A stretch of DNA of 64,000 nt. It comes from Bacteroidota bacterium. GTDB lineage: Bacteria; Bacteroidota; Bacteroidia; JADZBD01. Made by a program: the position numbers and the translations under genes. The stretch covers positions 87 through 64,086 of the forward strand of contig JBFLYZ010000015.1 of NCBI GenBank assembly GCA_040756415.1, in the 5' to 3' direction. The notes beneath the pieces were generated by a model. It searched no databases. It was given only the letters and a program-made list of their open reading frames with translations, and was not told the DNA's origin. Of this stretch, positions 16,007-62,675 are shown one piece after another. Position 1 is the first letter of the stretch. Every line of letters starts with the position of its first letter.

Positions 16007-16125
16007 AGGTGTCAGGTGGCAAGTATCAGGTATTAGGTATCAGGTATTAGGTATTAGGTATCAGGTATCAGGTATTAGGTATCAGGTATTAGGTATCAGG
16101 TATTAGGTATCAGGTATCAGGTATC
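16007..16125 (+). repeat. Heptamer tandem array (AGGTATY x14 plus 3 degenerate units)
   Basis: Read directly; the last unit overlaps the stop codon of the four-helix bundle gene. Confidence 0.97.
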
Positions 16126-16483
16126 AGGAGGGCTGCCGGATTGAATCCTTGAGCTTGCTGATCATTTTTTGAATTTTAGTCACCTTCTCTATCAGGTTTT
16201 TTAACTCTTCTTTTGAAATGTAGTTTAATTCATTCGCTAAAATAAGCTGCGTTTCAATTTCGAACGCGGAACCAAGTGATACATTAAGGAACTGACAAAA
16301 CTGTTTTTGTGAATCACGCGAACACCCCTCAGCAATATTACTTGGAATAGAAACAGCAGCCCGGTTCAATTGGGCTACCAATCCATACTTTTCCTCAACA
16401 GGAAATTTTTTCGTCAACACAAAGATCTCCTTGGCCAAACTCATCGACTCCTGCCAGATTTTTAACTCCTTAAAATTATGCAT
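16124..16483 (-). CDS. Four-helix bundle protein (23S rRNA IVS protein family)
   Basis: FKELKIWQ, FPVEEKYGL..QLNRAAVSIPSNIAEG, GSAFEIETQL; AT-rich. Confidence 0.95.
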   Translation of the reverse strand: MHNFKELKIWQESMSLAKEIFVLTKKFPVEEKYGLVAQLNRAAVSIPSNIAEGCSRDSQKQFCQFLNVSLGSAFEIETQLILANELNYISKEELKNLIEKVTKIQKMISKLKDSIRQPS

Positions 16484-16492
16484 ACCCTATAT

Positions 16493-16509
16493 CTTGATAC
16501 TTGATACCC
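16493..16509 (-). repeat. Two inverted copies of the heptamer upstream of the four-helix bundle gene
   Basis: CTTGATACTTGATACCC is the reverse complement of GGGTATCAAGTATCAAG, the same family as the 16007-16125 array. Confidence 0.75.
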
Positions 16510-16553
16510 TTTTATTGTTTACATAAATATTTTCGTTACCCGTTATGTTGTTT

Positions 16554-17732
16554 TCAATTCAGCAGCTCGAATACCCCTGCTGCTCCCTGCCCCGTTCCCA
16601 CGCACATGGTGACCATTCCGTATTTTTTCTTCCTGCGCCTCAGTTCATTAAAGATCTGCACACTCAGTTTCGCTCCCGAACAACCCAGGGGATGTCCAAG
16701 TGAGATGGCACCACCATTCACGTTGACTATTTCAGGATTCAGCTTCAATTCATTGATCACAGCCAGGCTTTGTGAAGCAAAAGCTTCGTTCAGTTCGATC
16801 AGGTCGACCTGGTCCTGTTTCATGCCGGCCATCTTCAGGGCTTTGGGAATGGCCGCCACCGGCCCTATGCCCATGATGCGGGGTGGAACCCCTGCCGCGG
16901 CATAGCTGACCAGCCGCGCGATGGGCTTGAGGTTGTTTTCCTTCATGAACTTTTCGCTCACCACCATCACGAAGGCGGCCCCATCGCTGGTCTGGGAGGA
17001 GTTGCCGGCCGTTACCACGCCATCCTGCGCGAATACCGGTTTGAGTTTGCCCAGGGCCTCCATATTGGTGTCCGCTCGCGGACCTTCATCGGTATCTACG
17101 GTAAACTCGCGGGTTTGCTTTTTTTCATTTTCATCCAAATAGTTCTCAGTCACCTTTACCGGAACGATCTCCTCTTTGAATTTTCCTTCTTTGATGGCCG
17201 CGATGGCTTTCATGTGCGAGTTGAGGGCAAACTTATCCTGGTCTTCTCTCGAAACCTTGTACTCTTTTGCCACCGCTTCGGCCGTAAGTCCCATGCCCCA
17301 GTAATAATCGGGGTGCACTTTGGCTACCTCGTAGTTGGGCACTATGCGCCATCCGCCCATGGGAATAAGGCTCATGCTTTCGGCACCGCCCGCAATGATG
17401 CAATCGGCCAGGCCGGTGCTGATCTTGGAAGAGGCGATGGCGATGGTCTCCAGCCCGCTGGCGCAGTAGCGGTTCACCGTCATGCCGGGTACTTTATCTG
17501 TGTTGAGAGCCAGGAGCGAGATCAGCCGGCCCATGTTCAGTCCTTGCTCGGCCTCGGGCATGGCATTGCCTACAATCACATCGTCCACCTGCTCGGGGTT
17601 CACGCTGGGAACGCTCCTCATCAGGTGTTTGATCACTTCGGCTGCGAGGTCATCGGTGCGGGTAAAGCGGAAACCTCCGCGGTTGGCTTTTCCAACGGCT
17701 GAGCGGAAGCCGGCTACTATGTATGCATTCAT
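16554..17732 (-). CDS. fadA: Acetyl-CoA C-acyltransferase (thiolase)
   Basis: [26 protein letters not shown]. Confidence 0.96.
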
Positions 17733-17767
17733 TTGGAACTTGGATGTTAGAAGTTGGATATTGGATT
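17733..17767 (+). repeat. Degenerate heptamer array TTRGAnn x5
   Basis: TTGGAAC TTGGATG TTAGAAG TTGGATA TTGGATT abutting the thiolase start codon. Confidence 0.7.
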
Positions 17768-17810
17768 GGGTTAGGACTTATGGCAAAGTTACGAAATTCC
17801 GGGTGGGAGT

Positions 17811-17872
17811 GGGTATCGGGTATCAAGTATCAGGACTTAGGCATCAAGTATAAGGAGTCAGGACTCAGGATC
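17811..17872 (+). repeat. Degenerate heptamer array, RRGTATC family (~8-9 units)
   Basis: GGGTATC GGGTATC AAGTATC AGGACTT AGGCATC AAGTATA AGGAGTC AGGACTC; overlaps the stop of 17858-18235. Confidence 0.8.
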
Positions 17873-18235
17873 AGGTGGATCGTCCTTTTTGCCGGATTCC
17901 TTCAGCTCCATGCCCTGGATATCATCTCTCAGCTTTTTTGCCTTGGCCAGCAGCATGAGCATTTGCTGCTCGGGGTCCATGCCTTTGGGGAAGCTAGCCT
18001 TATCCTCTTCGGTCATTTTCTCATAGGCCGATCTCAGGTTAGCGAGCATTTTATCGCTCAGCGCTTTCAGGTACTCGGCCATGAGCTCGGGGGTGATCTC
18101 TTTTTTGGAGAGCAGGCTCATCTCCGCCTTTTCATCGCAGTAGCGGCATACAGGGGTGTCCCGTTCCGTATAACCGGATTCTTGTCCGCAAGCGGAGCAG
18201 CGGTAGAGGAGGAGGTAGCGGGGTTTGGGGTTCAT
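17858..18235 (-). CDS. Hypothetical protein with N-terminal zinc ribbon
   Basis: CSAC...CRYC followed by a helical region. Confidence 0.7.
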   Translation of the reverse strand: MNPKPRYLLLYRCSACGQESGYTERDTPVCRYCDEKAEMSLLSKKEITPELMAEYLKALSDKMLANLRSAYEKMTEEDKASFPKGMDPEQQMLMLLAKAKKLRDDIQGMELKESGKKDDPPDPES

Positions 18236-18303
18236 TGCTTAACAAAGATAAGCACTCAGGACATAAAAACGCAATATGCGAACAGCGATAATTCAATTTA
18301 CCA

Positions 18304-18897
18304 CTATCTGAATTTTATCTTCATTATTTTCAGTTCGCTTTTGTCAATTACCCCGTTAAGGTTTTGGTCAATGAAAATGACGAAATAGAGGTTGTCTGTT
18401 CTTAATTCATGGAAGCTTACATTCTCTCCATCGTGGTTGAGGGCAAGGATCCTCCATTCGAGCTCGAGCACCCCGCCCGGATGGGTGGCCACCCGCGTTA
18501 CCCGTTTATCTTTTTCATTTTCATAGAACAGGTAATGATGGCCCGAGGCGGAAACAAAAGCCGTGTCGTAGCCTTTCCCTTTAATGCTGGCAAAGCCGGT
18601 GCCCATTTGAAAGTAAGGGATATCTTCCAGCTTTTGCCCCACTTTCGCAAAAGCAGTATCGGTAGCGTTGTCTAAAATGGCGACCTGTGCCGAGTAGAAT
18701 TTCCCTTTTTTGCTGTTATAGACCTTGCAGTAATACCGCAAAGCAAAAGGCTTTTTATCCAGCGTTATGGAATCAGGAAAGCCTGAAATGATACAGGTGC
18801 TATCGCCCTGGATGAATTTTATTGTGTTGAGGTTGTAATCAGGTGGCTGGGCAAAGGCGAAGAGAGGAAGGAACGTTAGGAGGAGGAGTTGTTTCAT
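18304..18897 (-). CDS. Hypothetical secreted protein
   Basis: Signal peptide MKQLLLLTFLPLFAFA-Q; AT-rich. Confidence 0.75.
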   Translation of the reverse strand: MKQLLLLTFLPLFAFAQPPDYNLNTIKFIQGDSTCIISGFPDSITLDKKPFALRYYCKVYNSKKGKFYSAQVAILDNATDTAFAKVGQKLEDIPYFQMGTGFASIKGKGYDTAFVSASGHHYLFYENEKDKRVTRVATHPGGVLELEWRILALNHDGENVSFHELRTDNLYFVIFIDQNLNGVIDKSELKIMKIKFR

Positions 18898-18932
18898 GGA
18901 TAGATTCAATTTTTATAATTTAAAATTAGAAC

Positions 18933-19583
18933 TTAAGCTTCGTTGACAAAATCCACAAGATCCAGCTTGATCAGTTCCCAGTGTTTGTTTCGCAGGCAGA
19001 TCGGATCAAAATCGTCTTCTGCTGATGAAAAATCAACCAGTTTTTCCTTTACCTGGTCTCTATCATGAGTGTATTCATACCGCCTGTGATGCAGATCCAG
19101 CATAGTTGCCAGCGAGTAATTCTCCATTAGTTCATGAATATCCCAAAAGTCTTTTTTGCGGCCGCCTCCGGAGATCACTTGGAGCTTCATGGCAATAATA
19201 TCTCCTGCGTCAGCCATTCGGATACCATCTTCTTCCACAGATGGCAAAATGAATGGCTCTGTATAAAAGAGGTCAAGTTTAATGGAATTGTCTTCGCTTT
19301 CTCCAACAACATATGCTCTTCCCAAACCAACTTCCTGGTAGTCGCTTGTGTTCACGTAAGGAAAAACAGATCGCAAGAAATTGTCTATCGCATCAGAGTC
19401 GACTGAACCATAATCAGAGCCTGTAAAAAGGTCAATGTCTACGGACATACGATGGCCTCGCTGTAAACTGAGGGCAGTGCCACCCACTAATCTGAAATCT
19501 TTGAATAGTTCAGACTCCATCAGGGTTTCAAGTGAAGATCGTAATAGAGGACTTACCGTTCCGTAGTGCAATTTCTTACTCAT
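18933..19583 (-). CDS. Nucleotidyltransferase, AbiEii/AbiGii toxin family
   Basis: FRLVGGTALSLQRGHRMSVDIDLF; AMKL...GRKKDFWDI. Confidence 0.9.
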   Translation of the reverse strand: MSKKLHYGTVSPLLRSSLETLMESELFKDFRLVGGTALSLQRGHRMSVDIDLFTGSDYGSVDSDAIDNFLRSVFPYVNTSDYQEVGLGRAYVVGESEDNSIKLDLFYTEPFILPSVEEDGIRMADAGDIIAMKLQVISGGGRKKDFWDIHELMENYSLATMLDLHHRRYEYTHDRDQVKEKLVDFSSAEDDFDPICLRNKHWELIKLDLVDFVNEA

Positions 19584-20037
19584 GCTTTTTCAGGAAGTAA
19601 TCGATGGTTTCCTGACCGTAAAAACGGGTGATCTCATTCTTTTCCGTCTCATTTCCCCGTTCAAAGACACGCTTGATAACTGCCCTTTTTTGTTTTTCCC
19701 AATCGATCTTTTCTATATGCGTATCCCAAAATAGTATCCGCCTTAATTTGGAAAGATCAGGACGCGCTGAATGCTTACGTTTGATCTGGGCAATATCATA
19801 GAACACCTGCAGTTGCATTAAGAAACCCTCTTCCATTCCCAGCGCTTTTTCTATTTTAAGCGCCAGCGCTGTATTCATTCTGCGTTTGCCTTTTGTAATA
19901 GTAGCCAGTGTTTGAGGAAATTCACCAAGGGATATGGCAAAGCGACCTTTCGCTATCTTTTTTTTCTTCAACTCTCTTTCCACCAGCAATCCCGGGTGTA
20001 TGCCTTTTATGTATGACAATTGTAATTTCATATACAA
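19576..20037 (-). CDS. HigA-like XRE HTH fused to DUF6922-like domain; putative antitoxin/regulator
   Basis: IHPG..., KGKRRMNTALALKIEKALG, LFWDT..IDWEKQKRAVIKRVFERG; overlaps the toxin start by 8 bp. Confidence 0.85.
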   Translation of the reverse strand: MYMKLQLSYIKGIHPGLLVERELKKKKIAKGRFAISLGEFPQTLATITKGKRRMNTALALKIEKALGMEEGFLMQLQVFYDIAQIKRKHSARPDLSKLRRILFWDTHIEKIDWEKQKRAVIKRVFERGNETEKNEITRFYGQETIDYFLKKHE

Positions 20038-20209
20038 ATATAAGCAAAATTGTTTACAAATTTTAGCTTATTAATGATTTGCATATATACATTTGACAAT
20101 CAATATTATATAATAGAATGCTTTGTGTCCTTTCTAAAGTCTTGCGTTCACCACAAAGACTCAAGAAAGCTTCTCTTTCAAGATCTAATAGATACTGCTC
20201 ACCGCCTCC

Positions 20210-22648
20210 CTAATTCCTCAGTACTTTACCTCCGGTCAAGATGCTCTGTATCCTTTCAAGGGTTTTTTTCTCCCCGCATAGGCTCAAAAACGCTTCTCTC
20301 TCTAAGTCAAGCAAATATTGCTCGCTTACTAATGTAGGAGCAGAGAGTTCCCCACCACACAACACATGCGCCAGCTTCTGCGAGATCTTGACATCATGCT
20401 CGGAGATGTAGTTGCCGCTGAGCATGCTATTGGCCCCTAAATAGGCCAGGCCCAGGGCCTGCTTGCCCAATACGCGTATATCTTTCCGGGGCGCGGGCTT
20501 TACATAACCTTCTTTGGCAATTTCCAGGCATTCAGCTTTTGCTTCGGCTAAAAGGCGGGCGCGGGAAACCACCACCAGGTCGCGGCCCTTGCGCAGGTAA
20601 CCCAGGTCAAAGGCCTCGTGGGCGCTGGTGCTGACCTTGGCCTGACCTATAGTAAGGAAGCGATCTCGGAAGTTGTTCAGCTCCACATCGCCCTCCTGCA
20701 GCTCATCGCTCAGGCGCAGGGCAAATTCTTTGGTGCCACCGCCACCGGGAATAAGGCCTACGCCAAATTCAACCAGTCCCATATAAGTTTCGGCATGGGC
20801 CACTACCTTATCCGAGTGCATGCTCATCTCGCAGGCGCCTCCCAAAGCCATGTTGTGTGGCGCCACCACCACGGGTATGGCCGAATAACGCACGCGCATC
20901 ATGGTGCTCTGGAAAAGCTTGATGGCAAAGTTGAGCTCGTCCCATTCCTGCTCCACGGCAAACATGAAGATCATGCCCACGTTGGCGCCCGCGCTGAAGT
21001 GCGCCCCTTCGTTGGAGATCACCAGTCCCTGGAAATCCTTTTCGGCCAGCTCTATGGCCTTGTTGATGCCTTCTATCACTTCGCCACCTATTGAATTCAT
21101 TTTAGTGTTCCACTCCAGGTTGAGTATGCCATCGCCAATATCGGTTACCGTGGCCCCGCTGTTCTTCCACACCGTTTTGGTGGGGCGGATCACATCGAGC
21201 ATAATGTACTCTTCGGTGCCGGGTATGGCCTTATAGCTCTTGCTGGGTATATCGTAGTATTTCTTAACCCCGTTCTCTACCTTATAAAAGCTGGTGTTGC
21301 CGGCCTTGAGGAAATCATATACCCAGGCTGCGGGCTTTGCCGCCTGCCCGGAAGGAAGCGTGCCAATCTTTTCCATGGCTTCCACGCTTTCCTTTACGCC
21401 TATAGCATCCCAGTATTCAAAGGGACCCATATCCCAGGCAAAGCCGGCTTTTAAGGCATCGTCTATTCTATAGAGCTCATCGGAGATCTCGGGAATGCGG
21501 TTGCTCACGTAAGCGAAAAGACCGAAGAAGGAGGCGCGGTAAAAATCGCCCGCCTTGTCCTTGCCCGCAATAAGCACTTTGAGCCGGTCCTTTAAATTCT
21601 CGATGGACTTGGTCTGCTCGAGCGTAGCGAACTTCACCTTCTGCGATGGCTTATACTCGAGCGTTTTCAGGTCGAGCGCCATAATTTCAGACTTGCCTTC
21701 CTTGTTCTTTATCTTCTTGTAAAAGCCCTGCCCGGTCTTATCGCCCAGCCACTTGTTGTCGTTCATGGTCTTGACGTACGAGGCCAGCTTGAAGAAATCT
21801 TTCGCTTCATCGTTGGGCACGCCCTGGGCCAGCCCGTTGGCCACGTGCACCAGGGTATCGAGGCCCACCACATCGCAGGTGCGGAAGGTGGCGCTCTTGG
21901 GGCGGCCGACCACGGGGCCGGTGAGCTTATCCACTTCCTCTACGGTCAATCCCATCTTATCCACCAGGTGGAAGAGGCTCATAATGCCGAACACGCCAAT
22001 GCGGTTGGCGATGAAGGCAGGGGTATCCTTGCAGAGCACGGTGGTCTTGCCCAGGTACAGGTCACCGTAATGCATCAGGAAGTCGATGACAGCTTTATCC
22101 GTTTTGGGCGTGGGAATGACCTCGAGCAATTTCAGGTAGCGCGGTGGATTGAAGAAGTGTGTTCCGCAAAAATGTTTTTGAAAATCCTCGCTGCGCCCTT
22201 CCAGCATCATGTGAATAGGGATACCAGAGGTATTCGTAGTGATCAGCGTTCCGGGTCTGCGGTGCTTTTCTACGTTCTCGAAGACCTGCTTTTTAATGTC
22301 CAGCCGCTCCACCACCACTTCTATCACCCAATCGCAGGAAGATATCTTCTGCATATCGTCTTCGAAATTGCCGGTGCTGATCCTGCTGGCAAAAGATTTT
22401 TTATAGATAGGGGAGGGGTTGGACTTGAGCGCGAAGGCCAGGGCATCGTTGACTATTTTATTTCTCGCTGCGCGCGCAGTCTTCACTTCGGCTCCGCTCA
22501 GCGTGACGGCTGGTGCTGCCGGAGCGTCTTTGGGTACGATATCCAGCAGCAGCACTTCTACTCCGATGTTTGCAAAATGGCAGGCGATGCGAGAGCCCAT
22601 CACTCCCGAACCGAGGACGGCTACTTTATTGATGATACGTTTTGACAT
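20210..22648 (-). CDS. fadN: 3-hydroxyacyl-CoA dehydrogenase / enoyl-CoA hydratase (FadN/FadB-like)
   Basis: VLGSGVMG, NTSGIP, HFFNPPRY, FSAGAN, ALGGACE, GLVEFGVGLIPGGGG. Confidence 0.93.
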   Translation of the reverse strand: MSKRIINKVAVLGSGVMGSRIACHFANIGVEVLLLDIVPKDAPAAPAVTLSGAEVKTARAARNKIVNDALAFALKSNPSPIYKKSFASRISTGNFEDDMQKISSCDWVIEVVVERLDIKKQVFENVEKHRRPGTLITTNTSGIPIHMMLEGRSEDFQKHFCGTHFFNPPRYLKLLEVIPTPKTDKAVIDFLMHYGDLYLGKTTVLCKDTPAFIANRIGVFGIMSLFHLVDKMGLTVEEVDKLTGPVVGRPKSATFRTCDVVGLDTLVHVANGLAQGVPNDEAKDFFKLASYVKTMNDNKWLGDKTGQGFYKKIKNKEGKSEIMALDLKTLEYKPSQKVKFATLEQTKSIENLKDRLKVLIAGKDKAGDFYRASFFGLFAYVSNRIPEISDELYRIDDALKAGFAWDMGPFEYWDAIGVKESVEAMEKIGTLPSGQAAKPAAWVYDFLKAGNTSFYKVENGVKKYYDIPSKSYKAIPGTEEYIMLDVIRPTKTVWKNSGATVTDIGDGILNLEWNTKMNSIGGEVIEGINKAIELAEKDFQGLVISNEGAHFSAGANVGMIFMFAVEQEWDELNFAIKLFQSTMMRVRYSAIPVVVAPHNMALGGACEMSMHSDKVVAHAETYMGLVEFGVGLIPGGGGTKEFALRLSDELQEGDVELNNFRDRFLTIGQAKVSTSAHEAFDLGYLRKGRDLVVVSRARLLAEAKAECLEIAKEGYVKPAPRKDIRVLGKQALGLAYLGANSMLSGNYISEHDVKISQKLAHVLCGGELSAPTLVSEQYLLDLEREAFLSLCGEKKTLERIQSILTGGKVLRN

Positions 22649-22722: not shown

Positions 22723-22830
22723 GCACCCCTCCTTGTCCCCGCCCCTAAGACAGGGGGAGATCTCATACACTCACCCATGCCAATTAGATGGTTCCCTCCC
22801 CTGTACTAGGGGAGGGACAGGGTGGGGTGC
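22723..22830. repeat. Inverted pair of ~38-bp REP-like palindromic units
   Basis: GCACCCCTCCTTGTCCCCGCCCCTAAGACAGGGGGAGA (22723-22760) and an inverted copy at 22792-22830; each has an internal CCCCT..AGGGG hairpin. Confidence 0.85.
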
Positions 22831-22854: not shown

Positions 22855-23211
22855 ATGTACGAACGGCAGATAAACAATATAAAATCAGTAAAAGAATTTC
22901 GTAGAAAGCTTCGAAGAAGAATGACCTTATCTGAGCGTACTATATGGAAGTGTCTTAGAAATAAAGAGCTTGGCGCCAAATTCAGAAGTCAGTTCAGTGT
23001 TGGGCAGTACGTACTGGACTTTTATTGTCCTGTGAAGAAGCTTGCAATCGAAATCGATGGGGAGATACATAACGATCCTGAGATGATAAAAAGAGATAAG
23101 AAACGAACAGGTTTTCTCAATAAGCATGGAATAAAGGTTTTGCGTTTTAGCAATGATATGGTGCTATCCGATATAGGTAAGGTATTGGAGGAGATAAAAA
23201 GGGAATTGTGA
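22855..23211 (+). CDS. DUF559 / Vsr-like endonuclease domain protein
   Basis: LRRRMTLSE..W..LR, KFRSQ, YVLDFYC, IEIDGEIH, D..R..FL...GIKVLRFSN; AT-rich. Confidence 0.92.
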   Translation: MYERQINNIKSVKEFRRKLRRRMTLSERTIWKCLRNKELGAKFRSQFSVGQYVLDFYCPVKKLAIEIDGEIHNDPEMIKRDKKRTGFLNKHGIKVLRFSNDMVLSDIGKVLEEIKREL

Positions 23212-23251
23212 CACCCCCTCTTGTCTTCTCCCCCTAGAACAGGGGGAGAGG
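23211..23251. repeat. Third REP-like unit, directly at the DUF559 stop codon
   Basis: ACACCCCCTCTTGTCTTCTCCCCCTAGAACAGGGGGAGAGG, inverted relative to 22792-22830. Confidence 0.85.
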
Positions 23252-23436
23252 TCGCACAAGCCAGCACCCCTTCGACCAATTAGCCTCTTTTTTAGACGAA
23301 TGCCAGGACCTGGGGTATTGGCTGCCGGGGTGAGGAATCCCCAAACCCTTCATATACAACTTATTATATTTTTTTCTATCTTCGTTCCCCAAGCAACTAT
23401 TTCAGGCTTTTTGCTGTCTTATAAAAAGATAAAAAC

Positions 23437-26400
23437 ATGCCCATGAATACTTTCTCCTTACCCCGCATCATCTGCTTTACGATCAGCACCCTCCTTACCT
23501 TTGGGGCTGCCGCGCAATCCAATGGCTGGACAGCCAATCCTTTCGATCAGCGCGTGTTCGTGGAGAACAAGGGACAGTTCGACAAGAGCATCAACGAGCC
23601 TACGCCTGTTCTGTTTGGCGCCAACAGCGTGGGAACGCATGCTTACTTTACCGCCAACAGCGTATGGTACCGCCACGATGTGGTGGTGGACATGACACCC
23701 CTTGAAAAGGCCGAGGTGCGCAAGGTGCAGCCCAACATCGAGGAGGAGCGCCTGAACAAATCCGTTCCGCTGTATATGAAGATGGAATGGGTGGGCGCCA
23801 ATCCCAACTGCAAGGTAGAAACCTCGGGGCTGGTACATAACTATTTCACCTACCCGAAAGACGGCAGCGTGAATACGCAGACCATCATCGCGCAGGCCTA
23901 TAAAAAGATCACGTACAAGAACCTTTACCCGAACATCGATGTGGAATACATCATGCCCACCGATAAGTACGGCTATAAGTATTCCATCATCCTTCACCCG
24001 GGCGCTGACCTGACAAAGGTGAAAATGAAGTATTCGTATCACAACTCCATTGCCAAGGACAACCAGGGTAATATCGTGGTGCAGAGCGTGTTTGGCGAGT
24101 TCGTAGACCATGCTCCCTACACGTTCTATGACGAGAACAACGTGGTGATCCCTTCGTCCTTCGAGCTCAACGGCAACGTGGTTTCGTTCAAGCTGCAGAA
24201 CTACAACAGCAGCAAGACCGTGATCGTTGATCCCTGGACCACCAACCCCGCGTTCCCCACGTGGAACCGCGTATATGACGTGAACTACGACCAGTGGGGC
24301 AACGTGTATGCTTACGGAGGCAACTTCCCCTGGCAGTTGGCCAAGCTCAATAATGCCGGTGTGATCCAGTGGACCTATACCGCAGCGGCCATGTACAACA
24401 GCGGCTGCTCAACGGGCGCCTGCTATGGCGATTGCGCGGTGGATGAGATATCGGGCACCTGTTACCTCACCGAGGGCTTCGACTGGGCCGCGGGATCGCG
24501 CGTGTTCAAGGTGAACACCCTGGGCGTGCAGACTGCCGCTTCGGTGGGTAACCCTAACTTCAACGAGATATGGCGCGCGGAGTACAACCGCTGTATCAAC
24601 ACCATCATCGGTGTGGGCGGAGGCACCACCTGCTGCTTCCAGGCCATCCTCATCGACACGAACCTCACCAACATGAACCCGGTGAACGTGTACTCCACCA
24701 ACCAGACCAACCACGACCAGTACGGCCTGGCCATCGACCCCGTAGCCAACTTCTGCTACATGGCCGAGGCGTATTACGGCAACCCCACCAACGCCATGGT
24801 GAAGGTACCCATCCCGGCCCTGCTGCCGCAGACATGGAACACCACGAACGGCTTTAACTTCTTTGAGGTTGGCAGCGTTCCCTACGTGATGGGCGCTACC
24901 AGCAACACCAATGGCTTTAACGCGCTGGCCGCCAGCATCAACTGGCTGTATGCCTACAATGGAACCACGCTGAAAAAGTTCAACAAAATGACGGGCGCGC
25001 AACTGCTGCAGGTGGCTACGGGCGGCACCATGTACGCCACAGGCGGCACCACGGTTGACGTGTGCGACAACGTGTACGTAGGTGCGGGCAACGTGATCAA
25101 AGGCTATGATCCCAGCCTCACGCAGTTCACCACCATCAACTGCAACGGCACCATCTACGATGTGAAGATGGGCCCCAATAACGGTAAGATCTATGCCTGC
25201 GGTGACGGCTTTGTATCGGAGCTCACCGTACCGGTCAACACCACTACCATCAGCGCCAGCTCTTCGCCCAATACCAACTGTAGCAACTGTAACGGTTCAG
25301 CCACCGCAACGGTAACCATATGCAACCAAACGGTAAGCAACGTAGGTTACTCCTGGTCTCCGGGCGGGCAAACCACGCAAACCGCTACGGGCCTGTGTCC
25401 AGGCTTATATACCGTAACCATTTCTACCGGCTGTAACGTAACCTTCAGCGATACGGTAACCGTTGGATCCGCGGTGGGCGGTGGCTTTACGCTCAACACC
25501 ACTTCTACTGGCGCCAACTGTTCTGGCGGTAACGCTACGGCAACGGCAACGCCTGTGGGCGGCCAGGGTCCGTTTACGTATAGCTGGACCACCACCCCCG
25601 TACAAACCACGCAAACAGCCACCGGCCTGGGAGCAGGAACCTATACCTGCTTTGTGACCGATGCCCAGGGCTGCTCCAACTCGACAACCGTAACGGTGGT
25701 CAACTCGCCCCCGGTCAACCTGAGCCTGACGGGATCTACCAACCCGGCCTGCTTTAACGCCTGTACGGGTACGGCCACGGTCAACCCTACCGGAGGCACA
25801 GGACCGTTTAGCTTTTCATGGACTACCACACCCTCGCAAAACGGGGCTACGGCCACGGGCCTGTGCGCGGGCACCTATACCTGCTATGTAACCGATGCGG
25901 CAGGCTGTTCCGATACGGCTACGGTCACGCTCACGCAGCCTACCCAGGTAACAGTGAGCAGCACACCGGTAACCATTTGCAACGGGCAAAGCACCAACCT
26001 TACCGCCACCGTTGCCGGTGGTACCCCCGGTTATACGGTAAGCTGGAACCCGGGTGCGCTGACCGGAACAACCGTAAGCGTATCGCCTACTGTCACCACC
26101 ACCTATACCATTACGGTTACCGATGCCAACGGATGTACAACGGCTCCTGTTACGGTAACGGTAACTGTTGGCGGACCGCTTACGCTTACCGCTTCTAACC
26201 CGGTGGCCATCTGTGTGGGGTCCAGTACCACGCTCTCTGCGCTGGCGGGTGGCGGCAGCGGCACCTATACCTATGCGTGGGCCCCTGGCGGAAGCACCAC
26301 CTCGTCTATCACGGTCAATCCCACCACCACCACCACCTACACGGTAACGGTTAACGATAACTGCGGTACGCCCGCACAAACCGATACGGTGACCGTTACG

Positions 26401-27204
26401 GTGAACCAATTGCCGGTAATCACCTTCGCGCCTAACGACAGCGCGGGCTGCGTGCCGCTGTGCGTCAACTTCAGCAATAATACTTCCAACCCGCAATCCA
26501 GCTCCTGGACATTCGGTGACGGAGGTACATCTACCGCCACCAGCCCGCAATATTGTTACATGACCCCCGGCACCTTCAACGTGTCGTTGACCGTGACCGA
26601 TATCAACGGCTGCTCCAATACGCTGACCATTAACCAGCTCATTAACGTATATCCCTACCCGACCGCTGATTTCGGCATGTCGGCACAGCAAACCAGCATT
26701 ATTGAGCCGGAGATATGCTTCACCAACCTGTCGGTGGGCGCTTCGTCCATCAGTTGGAATTTTGGCGATCCGCTCGCTTCTCAGAACGATAACAACAGCA
26801 CGCAGCAGAACCCCTGCCACACCTACAGCGACACGGGCACCTATTGCGTAACGCTATATGTGACCAACCCGAACGGCTGCCGCGATACGATCGACTATTG
26901 CCTGTACATAGGCGGTGCCTTTACCTTCTATGCTCCCAACGCATTTACGCCTGATGGAACGGGTCATAACGACTCCTGGACGCCCAAGGGCGAGGGCATC
27001 GATCCGTCCAGCTATCACCTGTGGATATTCGACCGCTGGGGCAACCTGATCTGGGATACCCAGAAGTGGGGCGAGCCCTGGCCGGGAACCGCCAACGGGG
27101 GCAGCGAGATTGTGCAGGAGGACGTGTATGTATGGAAAGTGAAATGCAAGGATATCTACGATAAATCGCACGAATTTGTAGGCCACGTATCCGTGATCAA
27201 GTAG
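23437..27204 (+). CDS. Large T9SS type B (gliding-motility C-terminal domain) surface protein with SprB-like and PKD repeats
   Basis: Signal peptide; FVENKGQF N-domain; ATGL.AGTY..VTD..GC repeats; WTFGDG/WNFGD PKD motifs; YAPNAFTPDG..ND...IFDRWG...GHVSVIK CTD. Confidence 0.92.
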   Translation: MPMNTFSLPRIICFTISTLLTFGAAAQSNGWTANPFDQRVFVENKGQFDKSINEPTPVLFGANSVGTHAYFTANSVWYRHDVVVDMTPLEKAEVRKVQPNIEEERLNKSVPLYMKMEWVGANPNCKVETSGLVHNYFTYPKDGSVNTQTIIAQAYKKITYKNLYPNIDVEYIMPTDKYGYKYSIILHPGADLTKVKMKYSYHNSIAKDNQGNIVVQSVFGEFVDHAPYTFYDENNVVIPSSFELNGNVVSFKLQNYNSSKTVIVDPWTTNPAFPTWNRVYDVNYDQWGNVYAYGGNFPWQLAKLNNAGVIQWTYTAAAMYNSGCSTGACYGDCAVDEISGTCYLTEGFDWAAGSRVFKVNTLGVQTAASVGNPNFNEIWRAEYNRCINTIIGVGGGTTCCFQAILIDTNLTNMNPVNVYSTNQTNHDQYGLAIDPVANFCYMAEAYYGNPTNAMVKVPIPALLPQTWNTTNGFNFFEVGSVPYVMGATSNTNGFNALAASINWLYAYNGTTLKKFNKMTGAQLLQVATGGTMYATGGTTVDVCDNVYVGAGNVIKGYDPSLTQFTTINCNGTIYDVKMGPNNGKIYACGDGFVSELTVPVNTTTISASSSPNTNCSNCNGSATATVTICNQTVSNVGYSWSPGGQTTQTATGLCPGLYTVTISTGCNVTFSDTVTVGSAVGGGFTLNTTSTGANCSGGNATATATPVGGQGPFTYSWTTTPVQTTQTATGLGAGTYTCFVTDAQGCSNSTTVTVVNSPPVNLSLTGSTNPACFNACTGTATVNPTGGTGPFSFSWTTTPSQNGATATGLCAGTYTCYVTDAAGCSDTATVTLTQPTQVTVSSTPVTICNGQSTNLTATVAGGTPGYTVSWNPGALTGTTVSVSPTVTTTYTITVTDANGCTTAPVTVTVTVGGPLTLTASNPVAICVGSSTTLSALAGGGSGTYTYAWAPGGSTTSSITVNPTTTTTYTVTVNDNCGTPAQTDTVTVTVNQLPVITFAPNDSAGCVPLCVNFSNNTSNPQSSSWTFGDGGTSTATSPQYCYMTPGTFNVSLTVTDINGCSNTLTINQLINVYPYPTADFGMSAQQTSIIEPEICFTNLSVGASSISWNFGDPLASQNDNNSTQQNPCHTYSDTGTYCVTLYVTNPNGCRDTIDYCLYIGGAFTFYAPNAFTPDGTGHNDSWTPKGEGIDPSSYHLWIFDRWGNLIWDTQKWGEPWPGTANGGSEIVQEDVYVWKVKCKDIYDKSHEFVGHVSVIK

Positions 27205-36695: not shown

Positions 36696-37070
36696 CTACT
36701 TTTGAAAACTTTTAAGCCAGGCCAGGGCTTTTTCCTCGCTGGTGAACGGGCGTATGGGCGTTGCCGGCCGGAAGAACAGCCTGTACAGCCAGGTGATGAA
36801 CATAACCGAGCGTTTTGAGGTAAGCACGGCCGTGGCCCTGCGCGTGTGGGCCTGCGTGGCCGCGTAGCGCTGCGCCTCGCGCGTTATCCTGTAGTTCACG
36901 TTGCCATATACCAGTACAAGCGCTTTTTGGTTTCCCGTAAGCCGGTGAGCGGATTCGTAGTGATTATGCACGTCCTGCAGCCTGATCAAGGCCCCTTCAA
37001 AGATGTGAATGCGCAAAATACCGTCATCCCCCATCACCAGGTGAGCGGTGGTAGTTCTGGATTCTTTCAT
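36696..37070 (-). CDS. STAS/SEC14-like small protein
   Basis: DDGILRI...ITREAQRY...AVL...P.RPFTSEEKALAWL; same pattern as 29547-29948. Confidence 0.75.
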   Translation of the reverse strand: MKESRTTTAHLVMGDDGILRIHIFEGALIRLQDVHNHYESAHRLTGNQKALVLVYGNVNYRITREAQRYAATQAHTRRATAVLTSKRSVMFITWLYRLFFRPATPIRPFTSEEKALAWLKSFQK

Positions 37071-41202: not shown

Positions 41203-41250
41203 GGAATAAGGAAATAAGGAAATAAGGAAGGGCCCTCATGGGCCCTTTTG
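41203..41250. terminator. GRAATAAG x3 octamer repeat followed by a terminator hairpin
   Basis: GGAATAAG GAAATAAG GAAATAAG then AAGGGCCC-TCAT-GGGCCCTTTT between convergent genes. Confidence 0.7.
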
Positions 41251-42666: not shown

Positions 42667-44466
42667 CTACAAACTACCACTTCCATAAACTTTTTCACCG
42701 TTCAGGAAGGTGTACAGCACTTTCGTGGAAAGTATTTTCGATTCTTCGCACTTCATGATATCGTTGTCCAGTATCACGAAATCGGCAAATTTGCCCGGCT
42801 CTATGCTGCCTTTCTCCTTTTCCTCAAAGTTAGCGAAAGCGCCCCAAATGGTCATGCCTTTTAATGTTTCTTCTCTTGTAAGCGCTTCTTCCGACATAAA
42901 TCCGCCCTCAGGGAATCCTTTGGCGTCTTTTCTGAATACTGCGGCATAAAAAGTGGTCATGGGATTGATCTGTTCCACGGGGAAATCGGTTCCCAGGGCT
43001 ACCATTCCTGCAGCTTTCAATAAGGATCTATAAGCATAAGCGCCTTTCATTCGCTCTTTTCCCAACCGCTCCTCCGCCCAGTACATATCGCTGGTGGCAT
43101 GGGTGGGTTGGACGGAGGGAATGATGCCGCAGGTTTTATAGATGTCAAGATCGGAGGGGTGGATCACCTGGGCGTGCTCGATACGCCATCTCCAGTACTT
43201 TGGTCCGGGATCGTGCGTCCTTAAGCTAATGATGGTATCGCTGCCATTGAGTTTTTTGCGGGGAAACAAGACGGTATTACGGTAAACGTTAAGCATCGCC
43301 CTGTGGGCAGAATCTCCGATGCAATGAACGTTCATCTGAAAGCCCTGCTCATAGAGCTGCAGTGCCCTTTTCTCAAAATGAGCCAGCTTGTTAAGCAGAA
43401 ATCCTGACCATCCCTTTTTGTCATGGTAATCTTCCATCAGGCAGGCCCCGCGTGAGCCTAAAGCGCCATCGGCATACAGCTTGAATGAACGGACATTTAA
43501 GCGCTCGGTTTTATATACGTTCTTTACAAGGTAATGGGCATAGTTCGGTGCCGAATCGCTGAGCATGGCATACACCCGCATCTTCAGCTTACCCTGCTTC
43601 TGCAGGCTGTCTATCGCATCGATCTCGTGCTTCATGAGCCCCGCGTCATCTACGGTGGTCAGGCCTACTTCAAAACAATTTTTTTGAGCTTTGAGCAGGG
43701 CATTTTCCATCTGGGCCGGGGTGGGCGGTGGAATGACGGAAGCCACCAGGTCTATCGCATTGTCGATCAAGATGCCGGTAGGATCGAAATAGGGATAGCT
43801 CATGCGCTTTATTTCTTTCCGGTCTTCTTCCACCGTCCAGGAATCATCATTCGTAAATACATATTCTATCGTACCGCCCGTCACTTTGGTCCGATTGGTG
43901 ATCTTCGCTCTCCTCAATGCCTCGCCATTCACCAGGACAGCATGTCCGTCAATTCGCTTCAGGAAGACCGGGGTGTTCGGAAACAGCGAATCCAGCTTTT
44001 TGCGGTCGGGGAACTCTTTTACATCCCAGTCGTTCTGGTCCCAGCCGCGGCCAATGATCCATTCGCTTTTATTCACCTCGGCAAACTCCACTACTTTCTT
44101 CAGCACTTCATCAAAGGATTTGGTCCCCACCAGGTCGGCCTGGTTCAGGCCCAGGCCATACCCGAGAAAATGGCAATGCGAATCGATGAAGCCGGGGTAG
44201 ACGGCTTTGCCCTGCGCGTCCAGCTTTTCGCCATCGTATTGCGCCAGGATGGAGTCGCTCTTGCCAACCGCAATGATCTTCCCGTCTTTTATGGCAAAGC
44301 TCTCGGCAACAGAAAAGAGCGAATCAACGGTATAAACAACGGCATTATGAACAATGAGATCGACTTTTTCCCTTGGTTTTTCTGAAGAGCAGGAAAAAAA
44401 GTTTACCACGGAGATGCAGAGAACACAGAGAGGCACGGAGAAAGGAGATCTGCGTGGAAAGTTCAT
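42667..44466 (-). CDS. Amidohydrolase 3 family lipoprotein (YtcJ-like)
   Basis: PGFIDSHCH, GRGWDQNDW, ADGALGSRGA, HCIGD, RIEHAQ, LGTDFPVE, GKFADFVIL. Confidence 0.93.
   Translation of the reverse strand: MNFPRRSPFSVPLCVLCISVVNFFSCSSEKPREKVDLIVHNAVVYTVDSLFSVAESFAIKDGKIIAVGKSDSILAQYDGEKLDAQGKAVYPGFIDSHCHFLGYGLGLNQADLVGTKSFDEVLKKVVEFAEVNKSEWIIGRGWDQNDWDVKEFPDRKKLDSLFPNTPVFLKRIDGHAVLVNGEALRRAKITNRTKVTGGTIEYVFTNDDSWTVEEDRKEIKRMSYPYFDPTGILIDNAIDLVASVIPPPTPAQMENALLKAQKNCFEVGLTTVDDAGLMKHEIDAIDSLQKQGKLKMRVYAMLSDSAPNYAHYLVKNVYKTERLNVRSFKLYADGALGSRGACLMEDYHDKKGWSGFLLNKLAHFEKRALQLYEQGFQMNVHCIGDSAHRAMLNVYRNTVLFPRKKLNGSDTIISLRTHDPGPKYWRWRIEHAQVIHPSDLDIYKTCGIIPSVQPTHATSDMYWAEERLGKERMKGAYAYRSLLKAAGMVALGTDFPVEQINPMTTFYAAVFRKDAKGFPEGGFMSEEALTREETLKGMTIWGAFANFEEKEKGSIEPGKFADFVILDNDIMKCEESKILSTKVLYTFLNGEKVYGSGSL
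44402..44443. repeat. Downstream arm of the imperfect inverted repeat around GxxExxY #1
   Basis: TTTACCACGGAGATGCAGAGAACACAGAGAGGCACGGAGAAA; CACRGAG subunits. Confidence 0.85.
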
Positions 44467-44873
44467 TTTCTTGGAAGTTTGGCAAATTCAGGAGTAACGA
44501 GAGAAACCATTGTGTCTTTTATATTCAAACTGCAGAAATTGAATAAAAGGCCTTTAGGTTTTCCGGCCAGGGTCAAATAGGAAAGTAAAATAGCCGTGTG
44601 AACGGGATGTAGAACTTCCACGGCCTTATTCCCTACAATCACCAGATCATTAACTATAAGATCGAGCTTGAGCGGGTTTCCAAGTGTTTTCCCTTTATAC
44701 ATAATAGATACTGCGAGTTGCCTTTTGGGAAAAAGTTCAGCCTCCTTTAGCTCATCAAACAAACATTCTTCATAAACTGATTCAAGTAGTCCTGGTCCAA
44801 GTTGCTTATGAACCTCAATAGCACAACCAATTATCTTGAATGAAAGGCTGTTGATGTATTCCTGAGTAATCAT
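44463..44873 (-). CDS. GxxExxY protein (PD-(D/E)XK nuclease fold), possibly inactivated
   Basis: IGCAIEVHKQLGPGLLESVYE; ExK site reads GNK; alternative start at 44900 lies inside the repeat. Confidence 0.9.
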   Translation of the reverse strand: MITQEYINSLSFKIIGCAIEVHKQLGPGLLESVYEECLFDELKEAELFPKRQLAVSIMYKGKTLGNPLKLDLIVNDLVIVGNKAVEVLHPVHTAILLSYLTLAGKPKGLLFNFCSLNIKDTMVSLVTPEFAKLPRK

Positions 44874-44915
44874 TTCTCTGTGAACCTCCGTGTTCTCCAT
44901 GATCTCTATGGTAAA
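44873..44915. repeat. Upstream arm of the inverted repeat around GxxExxY #1
   Basis: Reverse complement TTTACCATAGAGATCATGGAGAACACGGAGGTTCACAGAGAAA aligns with 44402-44443. Confidence 0.85.
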
Positions 44916-60835: not shown

Positions 60836-60906
60836 GGGATATGGTTTAGCTTGGTCGCTAAATTATAAAAGTTCATGGAGAAAAACAAGTAATTGGTCGA
60901 ACAGGA

Positions 60907-61446
60907 CTATAAGCCTATGCTGATGCCTCCCCTGATCCAGGGGCTGCGGGGATAGGAGTAATAGGTTTCGTTGAGGTTCCAGAGCACCATCAGGAAGGCG
61001 TAGCTGCTGCCCATGCCCTGCTTGATGCCACCGCCCACCCAGATATTATTGATCCAGGTGCGCCCGGGGCGGAAATAGTCGAACTCGCCATTGAGCCACT
61101 GGTACTCGGCATGGAGGAAAACGAATTCGAGCACATTGAAGCGGTTGAACAGGCTGGCCCCGTAAATGCTGGTGCGGTAGGTGGGAGTGCTGGACTTATC
61201 GCTATAGTAAATATAGGTGAGGCCCAGCCCGGCCGAATAGCGCGGGGTGATCTCGTAGCCGATGAGCGGTGAAATGTTGAGCAGGAAGGAGCTGCCGGTA
61301 AATCCCCCTCCTATGTCACCGCCCGTGTACACCTTGTCCCAACTGAAGCCGCTTTTTTTCCTGGGCATCATCTGCTCGTTGAACTGCGCGCTGGAAGCGA
61401 GGCTGGCCAGGAGGGCGAGGCCGGTTATGCAGCTTAAAAAGTTCAT
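60907..61446 (-). CDS. Hypothetical exported protein, probable small beta-barrel
   Basis: Signal peptide; Gly/aromatic amphipathic strands. Confidence 0.7.
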   Translation of the reverse strand: MNFLSCITGLALLASLASSAQFNEQMMPRKKSGFSWDKVYTGGDIGGGFTGSSFLLNISPLIGYEITPRYSAGLGLTYIYYSDKSSTPTYRTSIYGASLFNRFNVLEFVFLHAEYQWLNGEFDYFRPGRTWINNIWVGGGIKQGMGSSYAFLMVLWNLNETYYSYPRSPWIRGGISIGL

Positions 61447-61498
61447 TCAGGTAAAATTACTAAATCAATTCGTACTTTCGTAAGCCTAACGCAAAAAC

Positions 61499-62203
61499 AT
61501 GAACGTTATTGTAACCGGGACATCGCGGGGAATAGGCAGGGAGCTGGTAAAAGCTTTTTGCCGGAAAATAAGATCGGGAACGATCTATGCCTTTACCCGC
61601 AGGGAGGGCGTAACAAAACCTCTCAGAAGGGATTGCGAGGCCATCAACCCCGCTGTGAACGTTCATGGGGTGATTCATAATATGAATGCGCGCAGCTACG
61701 ATGCGTACCGCGAGCAGTTGTTCCCCAAAAACATCAGGATCGATATTATCGTCAATAATGCGGGAATGCTGGTGAACAAGCCCTTCGGCCGTATTACCCA
61801 GGAGGAGCTCAGGGCGGTATATGACGCCAACCTTTTTTACCCTTTCGGTATCATCCAGGCCTGCCTGCCGAGGATGAGGAAAGGTTCTCATATCGTGAAC
61901 ATATCCAGCATGGGAGGCGTGCAGGGCAGCGCCAAGTTCCCGGGGCTGAGCGCTTATTCTTCGAGCAAGGGCGCCCTGGCCGTGCTGAGCGAATGCCTGG
62001 CCGAGGAATTCAAACCAAAGGGCATTGCGGTGAATTGCCTGGCCCTGGGAGCGGTGCAAACCGAGATGCTGAAGGAGGCCTTTCCCGGGTACAAGGCCCC
62101 TCTTAGCGCCAGGCAAATGGCGGAGTTCATCGCGGATTTCTCTTTGAAGGGGCATCGCTACTTCAACGGCAAAATACTGCCGGTGTCGCTTTCAACCCCC
62201 TAG
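61499..62203 (+). CDS. SDR oxidoreductase
   Basis: TGTSRGIG, NNAG, YSSSK. Confidence 0.92.
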   Translation: MNVIVTGTSRGIGRELVKAFCRKIRSGTIYAFTRREGVTKPLRRDCEAINPAVNVHGVIHNMNARSYDAYREQLFPKNIRIDIIVNNAGMLVNKPFGRITQEELRAVYDANLFYPFGIIQACLPRMRKGSHIVNISSMGGVQGSAKFPGLSAYSSSKGALAVLSECLAEEFKPKGIAVNCLALGAVQTEMLKEAFPGYKAPLSARQMAEFIADFSLKGHRYFNGKILPVSLSTP

Positions 62204-62248
62204 TTTAACCGCAAAGAACGCAAAGCAAATTCGCAAAGGGCGCAGAGA
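62204..62248. repeat. Upstream arm: 4 x CGCARAG
   Basis: TTTAACCGCAAAGAACGCAAAGCAAATTCGCAAAGGGCGCAGAGA. Confidence 0.9.
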
Positions 62249-62251
62249 AAA

Positions 62252-62629
62252 ATGACTGAAAACGAGTTATCGAATAGAATCATAGGCCTCGCTATTGAAG
62301 TTCACAATGTTTTAGGCCCCGGCCTGCTCGAAAGCGCTTATAAAGAATGCCTTTATTATAAGATCCTGCAAGCCGGCATTCCCGTTGAGAAGGAAAAACC
62401 TATGCCGCTTATATTTGAAAAAGTAAGGCTGGACTGCGGATACCGGATCGATCTCGTGGTGAACGGTAAGCTTGTGATAGAGGTTAAAAGTGTAGAAGCG
62501 CTCAATGATATTTATTTGGCCCAGACCCTAACTTATCTAAAGCTTGGCGATTATAAATTGGGCTTGCTTATTAATTTCAATGTATTGAGATTAAAAGACG
62601 GCATCAAAAGGGTAGCAAATGGGTTGTGA
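62252..62629 (+). CDS. GxxExxY protein (PD-(D/E)XK nuclease fold)
   Basis: AIEVHNVLGPGLLESAYKECL, YRIDLVV, IEVKSV, AQTLTYLKL, GLLINFN. Confidence 0.95.
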   Translation: MTENELSNRIIGLAIEVHNVLGPGLLESAYKECLYYKILQAGIPVEKEKPMPLIFEKVRLDCGYRIDLVVNGKLVIEVKSVEALNDIYLAQTLTYLKLGDYKLGLLINFNVLRLKDGIKRVANGL

Positions 62630-62675
62630 CCTTTGCGTTTCTTTGCGCTGCTTCTTTGCGTGCTTTGCGGTAAAA
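62630..62675. repeat. Downstream arm: 4 x CTTTGCG (inverted)
   Basis: CCTTTGCGTTTCTTTGCGCTGCTTCTTTGCGTGCTTTGCGGTAAAA. Confidence 0.9.

Follow-up and report, generated by a model that had tools for sequence, protein, structure and literature searches.

Small genes enclosed by inverted short-repeat arms at gene junctions of Bacteroidota: long-resident cassettes with a parallel in the intervening sequences of 23S rRNA

Why should four small genes, lodged in separate intergenic spaces of one bacterial genome, each be enclosed by its own inverted arrays of short repeats? The question is posed by a stretch of 64,000 nucleotides of DNA from a Bacteroidota bacterium (contig JBFLYZ010000015.1, positions 87 to 64,086), which we call the window. 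It comes from contig C15 of a draft genome of 3.85 Mb, assembled in 168 contigs and 99% complete, and the relatives of this genome are class-level Bacteroidota. The genes encode IVP, which is a four-helix-bundle protein of the family of 23S rRNA intervening sequences (IVSs) and of Avd, a DUF559 protein and two GxxExxY proteins. An earlier note, made from the sequence alone, took them for one class of minimal selfish elements, each with its own repeats. Motif counts, Tandem Repeats Finder (TRF) and Pfam agree with that note on the genes and their repeats, and the architecture of a small gene in inverted repeat arms between host genes is indeed shared and recurs widely. Yet the cassettes are not active minimal transposons. 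They are ancient, mostly vertical residents in host transcription units. They relocate from time to time and frequently decay into solo hairpins or arrays; they are mobile and resident both, on different time scales.

A cassette may be described as a small open reading frame (ORF), of the IVP or GxxExxY family or more loosely of DUF559, set between inverted short-repeat arms. All four in the window lie between protein-coding ORFs and none is in 23S rRNA; their ORFs of 118-136 aa have a G+C content (GC) of 0.375-0.413, against 0.532 for the window (Table 1). The right arm of the IVP gene reads TGATACC on the gene strand and GGTATYA on the plus strand (an RGTATYA array), and stops ~7 nt before the start codon of a gene for a 595-aa acyl-CoA-dehydrogenase-like protein (14213-16000, minus strand). 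Two inverted units TGATACY lie in the left arm, at 16495-16508. This arm is complementary both to the right arm and to an orphan array, array C, and the RNA fold pairs the two arms. The GxxExxY cassettes are made of short spaced motifs. GxxExxY #1, which starts at an ATG at 44873 in an ORF listed from 44900, has three CACRGAG on one side and two CTCYGTG on the other, while four CGCARAG face four CTYTGCG around GxxExxY #2, whose right arm ends 20 nt before the start of a peptidase-T-like gene (62695). In the minimum free energy (MFE) fold of the GxxExxY #2 cassette positions 14-53 pair with 438-477 (z -2.72), and none of 100 shuffled sequences is as stable. The DUF559 gene occupies a divergent region between a fadB-like gene (20210-22648, minus strand) and a gene for a 1255-aa protein (23437-27204, plus strand); of its two upstream units the first (22724-22776) is direct and the second (22790-22829) inverted relative to the downstream unit. 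Sequence comparison with solved structures relates IVP to PDB entries 2GSC (E 6e-23) and 2RLD, each with five chains, and DUF559 to 3HRL (E 7e-14) and to 3R3P, a 'mobile intron protein' (E 8e-4); no solved relative was found in this way for GxxExxY #2.

Does this architecture exceed chance? We scored inverted flanks by local alignment of the 150 nt upstream of a gene with the reverse complement of the 150 nt downstream, the controls being 1500 ORFs of at least 200 aa (mean score 15.5, 99th percentile 22). The window genome has seven IVP, three GxxExxY and three DUF559 genes. Twelve of these 13 score at least 26, compared with three of the 1500 controls, and the sole low scorer is a DUF559 gene on contig C12 (score 16). 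The four genes of the window score 26-35; the 33 of GxxExxY #1 is reached by one control and the 35 of GxxExxY #2 by none. The top-scoring control is the thiolase gene upstream of which array C lies. An unbiased scan, applied genome-wide to every intergenic ORF of 70-260 aa, returned 14 with scores of at least 26, comprising six IVP, three GxxExxY, one DUF559, one RAYT-like Y1 transposase and three others; 11 of the 14 thus belong to IVP, GxxExxY, DUF559 or RAYT. The RAYT-like gene (G000:C50:13834-14400, PF01797 E 3e-7) is flanked by repetitive extragenic palindromic (REP) hairpins GGCGAAGG...CCTTCGTC, and this locus is a classical REPtron in the same genome. RNAduplex energy of the 150-nt flanks is dominated by long, loose duplexes in GC-rich coding flanks and failed to tell the 13 genes apart from 400 controls, so the local-alignment score was used in its place. 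An exact 9-mer search for inverted partners of the arrays gave one match only for the window IVP gene, and was too strict.

How general is the arrangement? Relatives of the window IVP were sampled as 80 loci from species-representative genomes, 47-63% identical to it, and as 77 scored loci from metagenome contigs, where the single window protein was the query and no relative above 60% identity was found; a further 29 diverse IVP genes were drawn from 81 genomes of the class. A score of at least 26 is reached by 47 of the 80 loci (64 reach at least 22), 51 of the 77 and 22 of the 29. Nearly all flanks in the first sample have a periodicity of 7 nt, with 8 nt in some Flavobacterium; a period of 7 is found in 125 of 154 metagenome flanks and in most of the diverse genes. 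IVP is present in 63 of the 81 class genomes (1-14 copies), GxxExxY in 52 (1-18 copies) and DUF559 in 44. Eleven of 29 GxxExxY loci are enclosed at a score of at least 26, and others have a complete hairpin on one or both sides. Their arms are built of CRCNRAK-type motifs, with TTACCRC...GYGGTAA at the outer ends. In one genome, G010, several GxxExxY cassettes (L312, L316 and L317) have a further inverted repeat TTGTTACTGTTCGGGT...ACCCGAACAGTAACAA beyond their arms, forming a second repeat layer. About 10 of 14 standalone DUF559 genes, as judged by eye, adjoin CCCCTC...GAGGGG hairpins. Many DUF559 domains in relatives (L172-L189) fall in open frames of 800-1400 codons, and these are probably C-terminal nuclease domains of big proteins, a form distinct from the standalone genes. 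Repeat type follows protein family, as the earlier note had it, with tandem 7-8-mers at IVP, CRCNRAK motifs at GxxExxY and the G/C-rich hairpins at DUF559. The note was right only in part that each gene has repeats of its own. They are family-specific, but heptamers are not private to IVP, since array C adjoins the thiolase gene and, of the 52 period-7 arrays in the genome, which fall into a few unit families, only four flank an IVP gene.

Arms and protein descend together. The IVPs closest to that of the window, spread over several orders, share its unit type AGTATCAAG...CTTGATACT, and other IVP subgroups have units TTAGACR, TGGGTNT, AAGAGTC or GATGCCA. Arm similarity rises with protein identity, also for pairs in different contexts (rho 0.31), and none of 500 Mantel permutations reaches this value, a count that is not a probability as the loci are related by descent. 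Within IVP, repeat type therefore follows protein subfamily as well. Unit for unit, each arm matches its partner, and variant units recur in mirrored order. In nine orthologous cassettes from Sphingobacteriaceae pairwise identity of the arms is 75-82%; the values for codon positions 1, 2 and 3 are 76, 82 and 48%, and that for the spacer is 57%. Arm conservation equals that of codon positions 1 and 2, so that protein and arms are both under purifying selection. RNAalifold finds, in the alignment of these nine cassettes, a long-range arm stem of 25 pairs, and for eight of the pairs both partners have changed in at least one sequence. In G010, two GxxExxY copies at separate loci encode proteins that are 91% identical, and their arms differ by one transition that recurs in each unit on either side (CACAAAG/CTTTGTG versus CGCAAAG/CTTTGCG). 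This concerted A<->G change fits base pairing and protein recognition alike.

Cassettes of IVP and GxxExxY are also oriented with their hosts. IVP genes have the direction of the upstream neighbour in 77/77, 65/68, 27/29 and 5/7 cases in four sets, of which the first two are not independent as many loci share the thiolase context, and the same is true of 28 of 29 GxxExxY genes. In 98 enclosed IVP loci the arms have a median length of 31.5 nt (interquartile range 27-35) and are 87% complementary. From the end of the left arm to the ATG the median distance is 24 nt, and from the stop codon to the right arm it is 10 nt, distances at which a separate promoter or terminator has no obvious place between arm and ORF.

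Filled and empty sites occur at the same junctions in relatives, a comparison that the earlier note had proposed. The thiolase gene and the gene for the 595-aa protein are adjacent in 20 of 30 relatives. Thirteen of these junctions are ORF-less gaps of 16-167 bp, among them one with a hairpin of GxxExxY-type motifs and at least two with heptamer arrays; four hold unrelated ORFs, and in three, including that of the window genome, an IVP gene is present, the unit sequence differing from one to the next. Where the window has GxxExxY #1, a genome of the same family (G002) has an ORF-less hairpin TTTAACCGCAAAG...CTTCGCGG and G009 has a gap of 41 bp, and the DUF559 site is empty in G001, with a gap of 245 bp. 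The fadB-like and thiolase genes, adjacent in most relatives, are parted in the window by a 2.5-kb insert (17733-20209); in G025 and G008 the same junction is occupied by GxxExxY-type hairpins that lack an ORF, and in G013 by a GxxExxY cassette. An IVP gene is found in ~19 further Bacteroidota at the junction where the window has array C, which is probably what remains of the right arm of a cassette since lost.

That a cassette can move as a unit, in line with the earlier note, is seen in two IVP cassettes of Mucilaginibacter (L066 and L068), whose proteins are 89% identical and whose arms are the same. Their neighbours differ, and the homology starts and stops at the outer arm ends. Such movement is not recent in most copies. 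The IVP paralogs of the window genome are 22-36% identical, the 14 GxxExxY copies of G010 have a median identity of 33% (the best intragenomic pair reaching 91%), and there is no sign of recent copy bursts in either set. The earlier note held that stable synteny would count against its view, and synteny, extending across orders, is found in part for the window IVP. Of 81 loci of the window IVP subfamily 15 have the order thiolase-IVP-dehydrogenase, as in the window, and ~19 the order IVP-thiolase; 29 of 80 metagenome loci adjoin a thiolase gene, and IVP identity follows thiolase identity (rho 0.61 for 105 pairs and 0.39 for 153 pairs). Descent of IVP is mostly vertical. The genes are AT-rich, as the note observed, but this is no sign of import. 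In 79 of 80 loci the IVP ORF has a lower GC than its flanks (mean difference -8.8 points), and its GC rises and falls with that of the host (rho 0.79), so low GC is a family trait and recent horizontal import is rejected as its source. We likewise reject an insertion sequence or miniature inverted-repeat transposable element, as there is no transposase domain in the four genes and there are no near-identical copies among the IVP paralogs.

Table 1. Cassettes, arms and associated features in the window (coordinates in the window; strand as plus, minus or unassigned, shown by a point)
Feature	Coordinates	Strand	Description
IVP right (3′) arm	16007..16128	-	TRF 17.4 tandem heptamers, 86% matches; 15 strict motif hits
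IVP gene	16124..16483	-	119 aa; PF05635 E 5.2e-42; TIGR02436 E 6.5e-39; GC 0.389
IVP left (5′) arm	16486..16509	-	2-3 units GGGTATCAAGTATCAAG on gene strand; inverted-repeat score 26
TTGGATR array in 2.5-kb insert	17733-17775		short; the insert also holds array C
Array C	17811..17875	.	orphan array, GGTATCR heptamer family, upstream of thiolase gene (16554-17732, -)
201-aa ORF in 2.5-kb insert	18304-18909	-	no Pfam match
AbiEii toxin-family gene in 2.5-kb insert	18933-19583	-	
DUF6922 gene in 2.5-kb insert	19576-20037	-	
DUF559 upstream REP-like hairpin units	22724..22829	.	two G/C-rich units; inverted-repeat score 27
DUF559 gene	22855..23211	+	118 aa; PF04480 E 1e-31; Vsr-like PD-(D/E)XK endonuclease fold
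DUF559 third REP-like unit	23212..23271	.	begins at first base past DUF559 stop codon
GxxExxY #1 right (3′) arm	44402..44459	-	CTCCGTG/CTCTGTG-type units, ending ...CTCCGTGGTAAA on gene strand; score 33
GxxExxY #1 gene	44463..44873	-	136 aa; PDDEXK_3 nuclease fold; PF13366 E 6.8e-33; TIGR04256 E 1e-35
GxxExxY #1 left (5′) arm	44874..44913	-	TTTACCATAGAG..CACGGAG..CACAGAG on gene strand, abuts ATG
GxxExxY #2 left arm	62204..62247	+	TTTAACCGCAAAG, then CGCAAAG, CGCAAAG, CGCAGAG; score 35
GxxExxY #2 gene	62252..62629	+	125 aa; PF13366 E 2.8e-38; TIGR04256 E 3e-40
GxxExxY #2 right arm	62630..62675	+	CTTTGCG x4, ending GCGGTAAAA

What might keep such units in place for so long? We favour, tentatively, an account in which they are cassettes of the IVS type within operon transcripts, whose paired arms would be cut by RNase III and which are rarely relocated at the level of DNA. 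Such a cassette would be seated with few bases to spare between two co-directional host genes and read along with them, as part of the host operon RNA, because the gap between arm and start codon offers no obvious space for its own promoter. There the two arms would form a stem of ~27-35 bp whose loop is the ORF, a structure known from the 23S rRNA IVSs that carry this protein family. RNase III, for which the window genome has a gene, would cut the stem, freeing the cassette RNA and leaving the flanking cistrons as separate RNAs; an insert released in this way would do little harm, and could persist for a very long time. Arms and protein would be inherited and selected jointly, with compensatory or concerted change keeping the arms complementary while their copy number drifts through slippage. 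Now and then the whole unit of arms and ORF would be copied to another junction by some DNA-level step, and loss of the ORF would leave solo hairpins or orphan arrays. Passage of transcripts through the arms, pairing in vivo, cleavage and any part played by the protein are our inference.

A number of observations weigh against this account. The whole-cassette fold of the window IVP has a z of only -1.0, with 14 of 100 shuffles as stable, even though its MFE structure pairs the arms, and its left arm has just 2-3 units facing 17 in the right arm. The GxxExxY arms match only in their motifs of 7-8 nt, and the spacers between them are non-complementary, so that a stem would be interrupted; the motif spacing of 9-10 nt is one at which proteins could bind along a single face of duplex DNA. 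Of the 52 heptamer arrays 48 adjoin no IVP gene, and many are single and unable to form a hairpin. Beyond its complementarity, the arm sequence itself is conserved across orders and follows protein subfamily, which a pure stem model does not require. The authors who described the 23S IVS of Coxiella conclude that its S23p protein is probably not made in vivo (PMC4990558), so that even this model system offers no explanation of what the protein does. DUF559, lastly, is not biased in orientation (9 of 15 agree with the upstream neighbour), and inverted arms enclose only four of 14 standalone copies. It thus fits the IVS-type account less well than do IVP and GxxExxY, and of the single class that the earlier note made of all four genes, IVP and GxxExxY stand and DUF559 differs.

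Some of these same observations are what a purely DNA-level explanation would lead one to expect. The cassettes might be REPtron-like elements, in which the arms would be terminal inverted repeats made up of several binding sites for the encoded protein, and the protein would bind, and cut or recombine, its own ends or ORF-less copies in the way RAYT acts on REPs; the inverted orientation would then mark the two ends of a DNA element and not RNA pairing. We consider this main rival doubtful, though it fits GxxExxY and DUF559 better than IVP and does not exclude the IVS-type account. Both GxxExxY and DUF559 have nuclease folds, and the closest solved relatives of DUF559 include a mobile-intron homing nuclease (3R3P; see also the family table of PMC3424549). 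The conserved outer ends of the GxxExxY arms, with motifs 9-10 nt apart and non-complementary spacers, have the look of binding sites, and a shift in protein specificity would select exactly a concerted change of all units in both arms. That arm type tracks protein subfamily, that relocated cassettes are bounded at the arm ends, that homologous junctions hold hairpins with these ends but no ORF and that our scan recovered a true RAYT with its REPs all point the same way. IVP has no known catalytic fold, however; the paralogs are highly diverged, with mostly vertical descent, and ORF-less GxxExxY-type hairpins are rare, with just one in the window genome. No target-site duplication is visible, the flanks of related sites being too diverged to align, and the strong co-orientation of IVP and GxxExxY would be unexpected for an element that inserts either way, unless selection removes one orientation. 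Could the proteins instead be domesticated regulators? An IVP homopentamer ring might bind 4-5 tandem heptamers in single-stranded RNA or DNA after the manner of TRAP, each paralog reading its own heptamer family, with the arms serving in autoregulation, the orphan arrays forming a regulon and the whole being essentially non-mobile. Solved IVP relatives do crystallise as five chains, the Xanthomonas S23p is described as a toroidal homopentamer (PMC4990558, in its introduction), and the median arm of 31.5 nt amounts to ~4.5 heptamers. The conservation of heptamer sequence across orders along with protein subfamily, the purifying selection on protein and arms, the vertical descent at a fatty-acid-oxidation operon and the 48 orphan arrays, several of which belong to IVP-arm unit families, would also be accommodated. 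Against this the largest unit families in the genome include few or no IVP-flanking arrays, and regulation would leave unexplained the inverted, covarying arms, the same layout around GxxExxY and DUF559, and the patchy presence at one junction (three of 20 relatives). We think it quite unlikely. Least credible, and in our view very improbable, is an incidental association, in which slippage-prone simple repeats and terminator-like hairpins accumulate in repeat-rich spacers where small genes merely happen to lie. The genome does have 52 arrays, and such arrays have been reported from Bacteroidetes, Cyanobacteria and Beggiatoaceae with no link to a gene in the part of the report available (PMC4679880). 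Chance neighbours would not be expected to show inverted flanks in 12 of 13 family members as against three of 1500 controls, arms that match unit by unit in mirrored order and covary, an arm type that follows protein subfamily across contexts, or arm conservation equal to that of nonsynonymous sites.

The IVS-type account that we favour can be taken further, to a bolder proposal that we regard as unlikely. Three unrelated families, one an Avd-like pentamer ring and two PD-(D/E)XK nucleases, would each define operon-resident cassettes that use RNase III for their excision, with each protein reading the repeats of its own arms. The cassettes would then be intron-like but without ligation, the flanking cistrons working as separate RNAs, and the rRNA IVS would be the special case that happens to lie in rRNA. 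IVP would take one heptamer per subunit of its pentamer ring, making these proteins natural re-targetable readers of short tandem repeats, and their specificity might be deduced from a catalogue of protein-arm pairs.

Several further features of the genome touch on these repeats. One IVP gene (L008, G000:C40:16449-17588) lies between long inverted arrays of a 16-mer, 21.6 copies (350 bp) facing 17.7 copies (332 bp). A CTGTAAT heptamer array ends contig C71 (16888-17025, 19.7 copies) and the same array begins C86 (1-90, 12.9 copies); long arrays probably cause some assembly breaks. Hairpin units of the DUF559 type are found at the three DUF559 loci and around one unrelated gene, an ordinary gene for a 314-aa lipoprotein-like protein (G000:C35:3515-4700), and the units are thus not restricted to DUF559 genes. 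The DUF559 gene on contig C9 (L012, G000:C9:58014-59274) is contained in one open frame of 420 codons, which runs through a hairpin CCCCCTTTAAAAGGGGG into an rsmA/ksgA-like methyltransferase gene and may reflect either an in-frame fusion or an artefact of read-through. Elsewhere in the window an 8-mer array AAATAAGG (4.2 copies, 41187-41229) follows a gene for a 913-aa protein that ends at 41201, and a DUF7793/SpoIIAA-like gene for 124 aa lies at 36696-37070 on the minus strand. An Rfam scan of the window found no family at any arm, its sole match being the tmRNA gene at 11543-11909 on the minus strand (RF00023, 148.7 bits).

What do the cassettes tell us? Genes for IVP (annotated as 'four helix bundle protein'), GxxExxY and DUF559 are common in Bacteroidota. 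The rRNA IVS, a puzzle for 30 years, gains a larger natural context in which the same type of cassette lies in ordinary operons, and part of the unexplained intergenic heptamer arrays is now tied to a gene family. Hundreds of natural pairs of protein and repeat become available for direct tests of binding and cleavage specificity. The cassettes also point to a probable source of breaks in assemblies and of wrongly called N- and C-terminal extensions in the genes concerned. If processing by RNase III is true, they would provide a simple and portable means to split or insulate cistrons in Bacteroidota operons.

How, then, do the cassettes compare with known systems? A literature search, which covered few subscription journals and no TIGRFAMs or NCBIfam texts, gave no account of these genes as repeat-enclosed cassettes outside rRNA. 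DUF559 is in the same fold family as the Vsr-like homing endonucleases of the I-Bth0305I type, as its match to 3R3P indicates, and a table in PMC3424549 groups the family with Vsr and an intron homing endonuclease, listing the function of PF13366 as 'Unknown'. In contrast to those endonucleases DUF559 stands free between genes, not in an intron or intein, and has G/C-rich hairpin flanks. IVP shares a homologous four-helix bundle with Avd of the diversity-generating retroelements (PF22296 E 3.5e-5, NF033474 E 3.4e-5), a homology also noted in PMC10053308, but it scores below both curated cut-offs. A diversity-generating retroelement is rejected here, as no reverse transcriptase (RVT_1) match was found in the window genome, which is 99% complete. 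The head-to-tail intergenic heptamers recall the short tandemly repeated repetitive (STRR) sequences of cyanobacteria and other long simple sequence repeats; TAACTGA repeats, according to PMC4679880, occupy intergenic regions of Beggiatoaceae, Cyanobacteria and Bacteroidetes, filling spacers up to the start codons and reaching tens of copies in Bacteroidetes. The difference is that some of the arrays described here are paired in inverted orientation around IVP, with a unit type that follows protein subfamily. The terms '23S', 'four helix' and 'intervening' do not occur in that text.

The closest analogue at the level of DNA is the REP/RAYT system, which is present separately in the window genome. 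RAYT genes and REPs have a long history of vertical co-descent, a trait shared by the cassettes. The earlier note had drawn this parallel, and it is an apt one: in both cases a small single-copy gene has inverted extragenic repeats as its flanks, and ORF-less copies of the repeats lie elsewhere. They differ in that our four genes belong to PF05635, PF04480 and PF13366 and are not Y1 transposases, in that the IVP arms are tandem 7-mers and not palindromic REPs, and in that paired copies without an ORF are few.

The closest known match is the IVS of 23S rRNA, of the Leptospira, Coxiella and Xanthomonas type, and here too the link made in the earlier note was well chosen. The likeness lies in terminal inverted repeats able to form a stem, of ~28 bp in the IVS, in tandem heptamers of variable copy number beside the start codon and, for the IVP cassette but not those of DUF559 or GxxExxY, in a PF05635 protein within the loop. 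In Coxiella, according to PMC4990558, three tandem heptamers of varying copy number lie upstream of the S23p ORF, and a 28-bp terminal stem is cut by RNase III. The 23S gene of the window genome (C80:2407-5292, 2886 nt) aligns to model positions 1-2925 and is without insert. Our cassettes lie between protein genes of operons and not in helix 25 or 45 of 23S rRNA, and they may have much longer arrays, such as the 17 units in the window or the 350-bp 16-mer arrays on contig C40. Finally, whereas decay of the S23p ORF is reported from Coxiella in the same paper, the IVP of the cassettes is under purifying selection.

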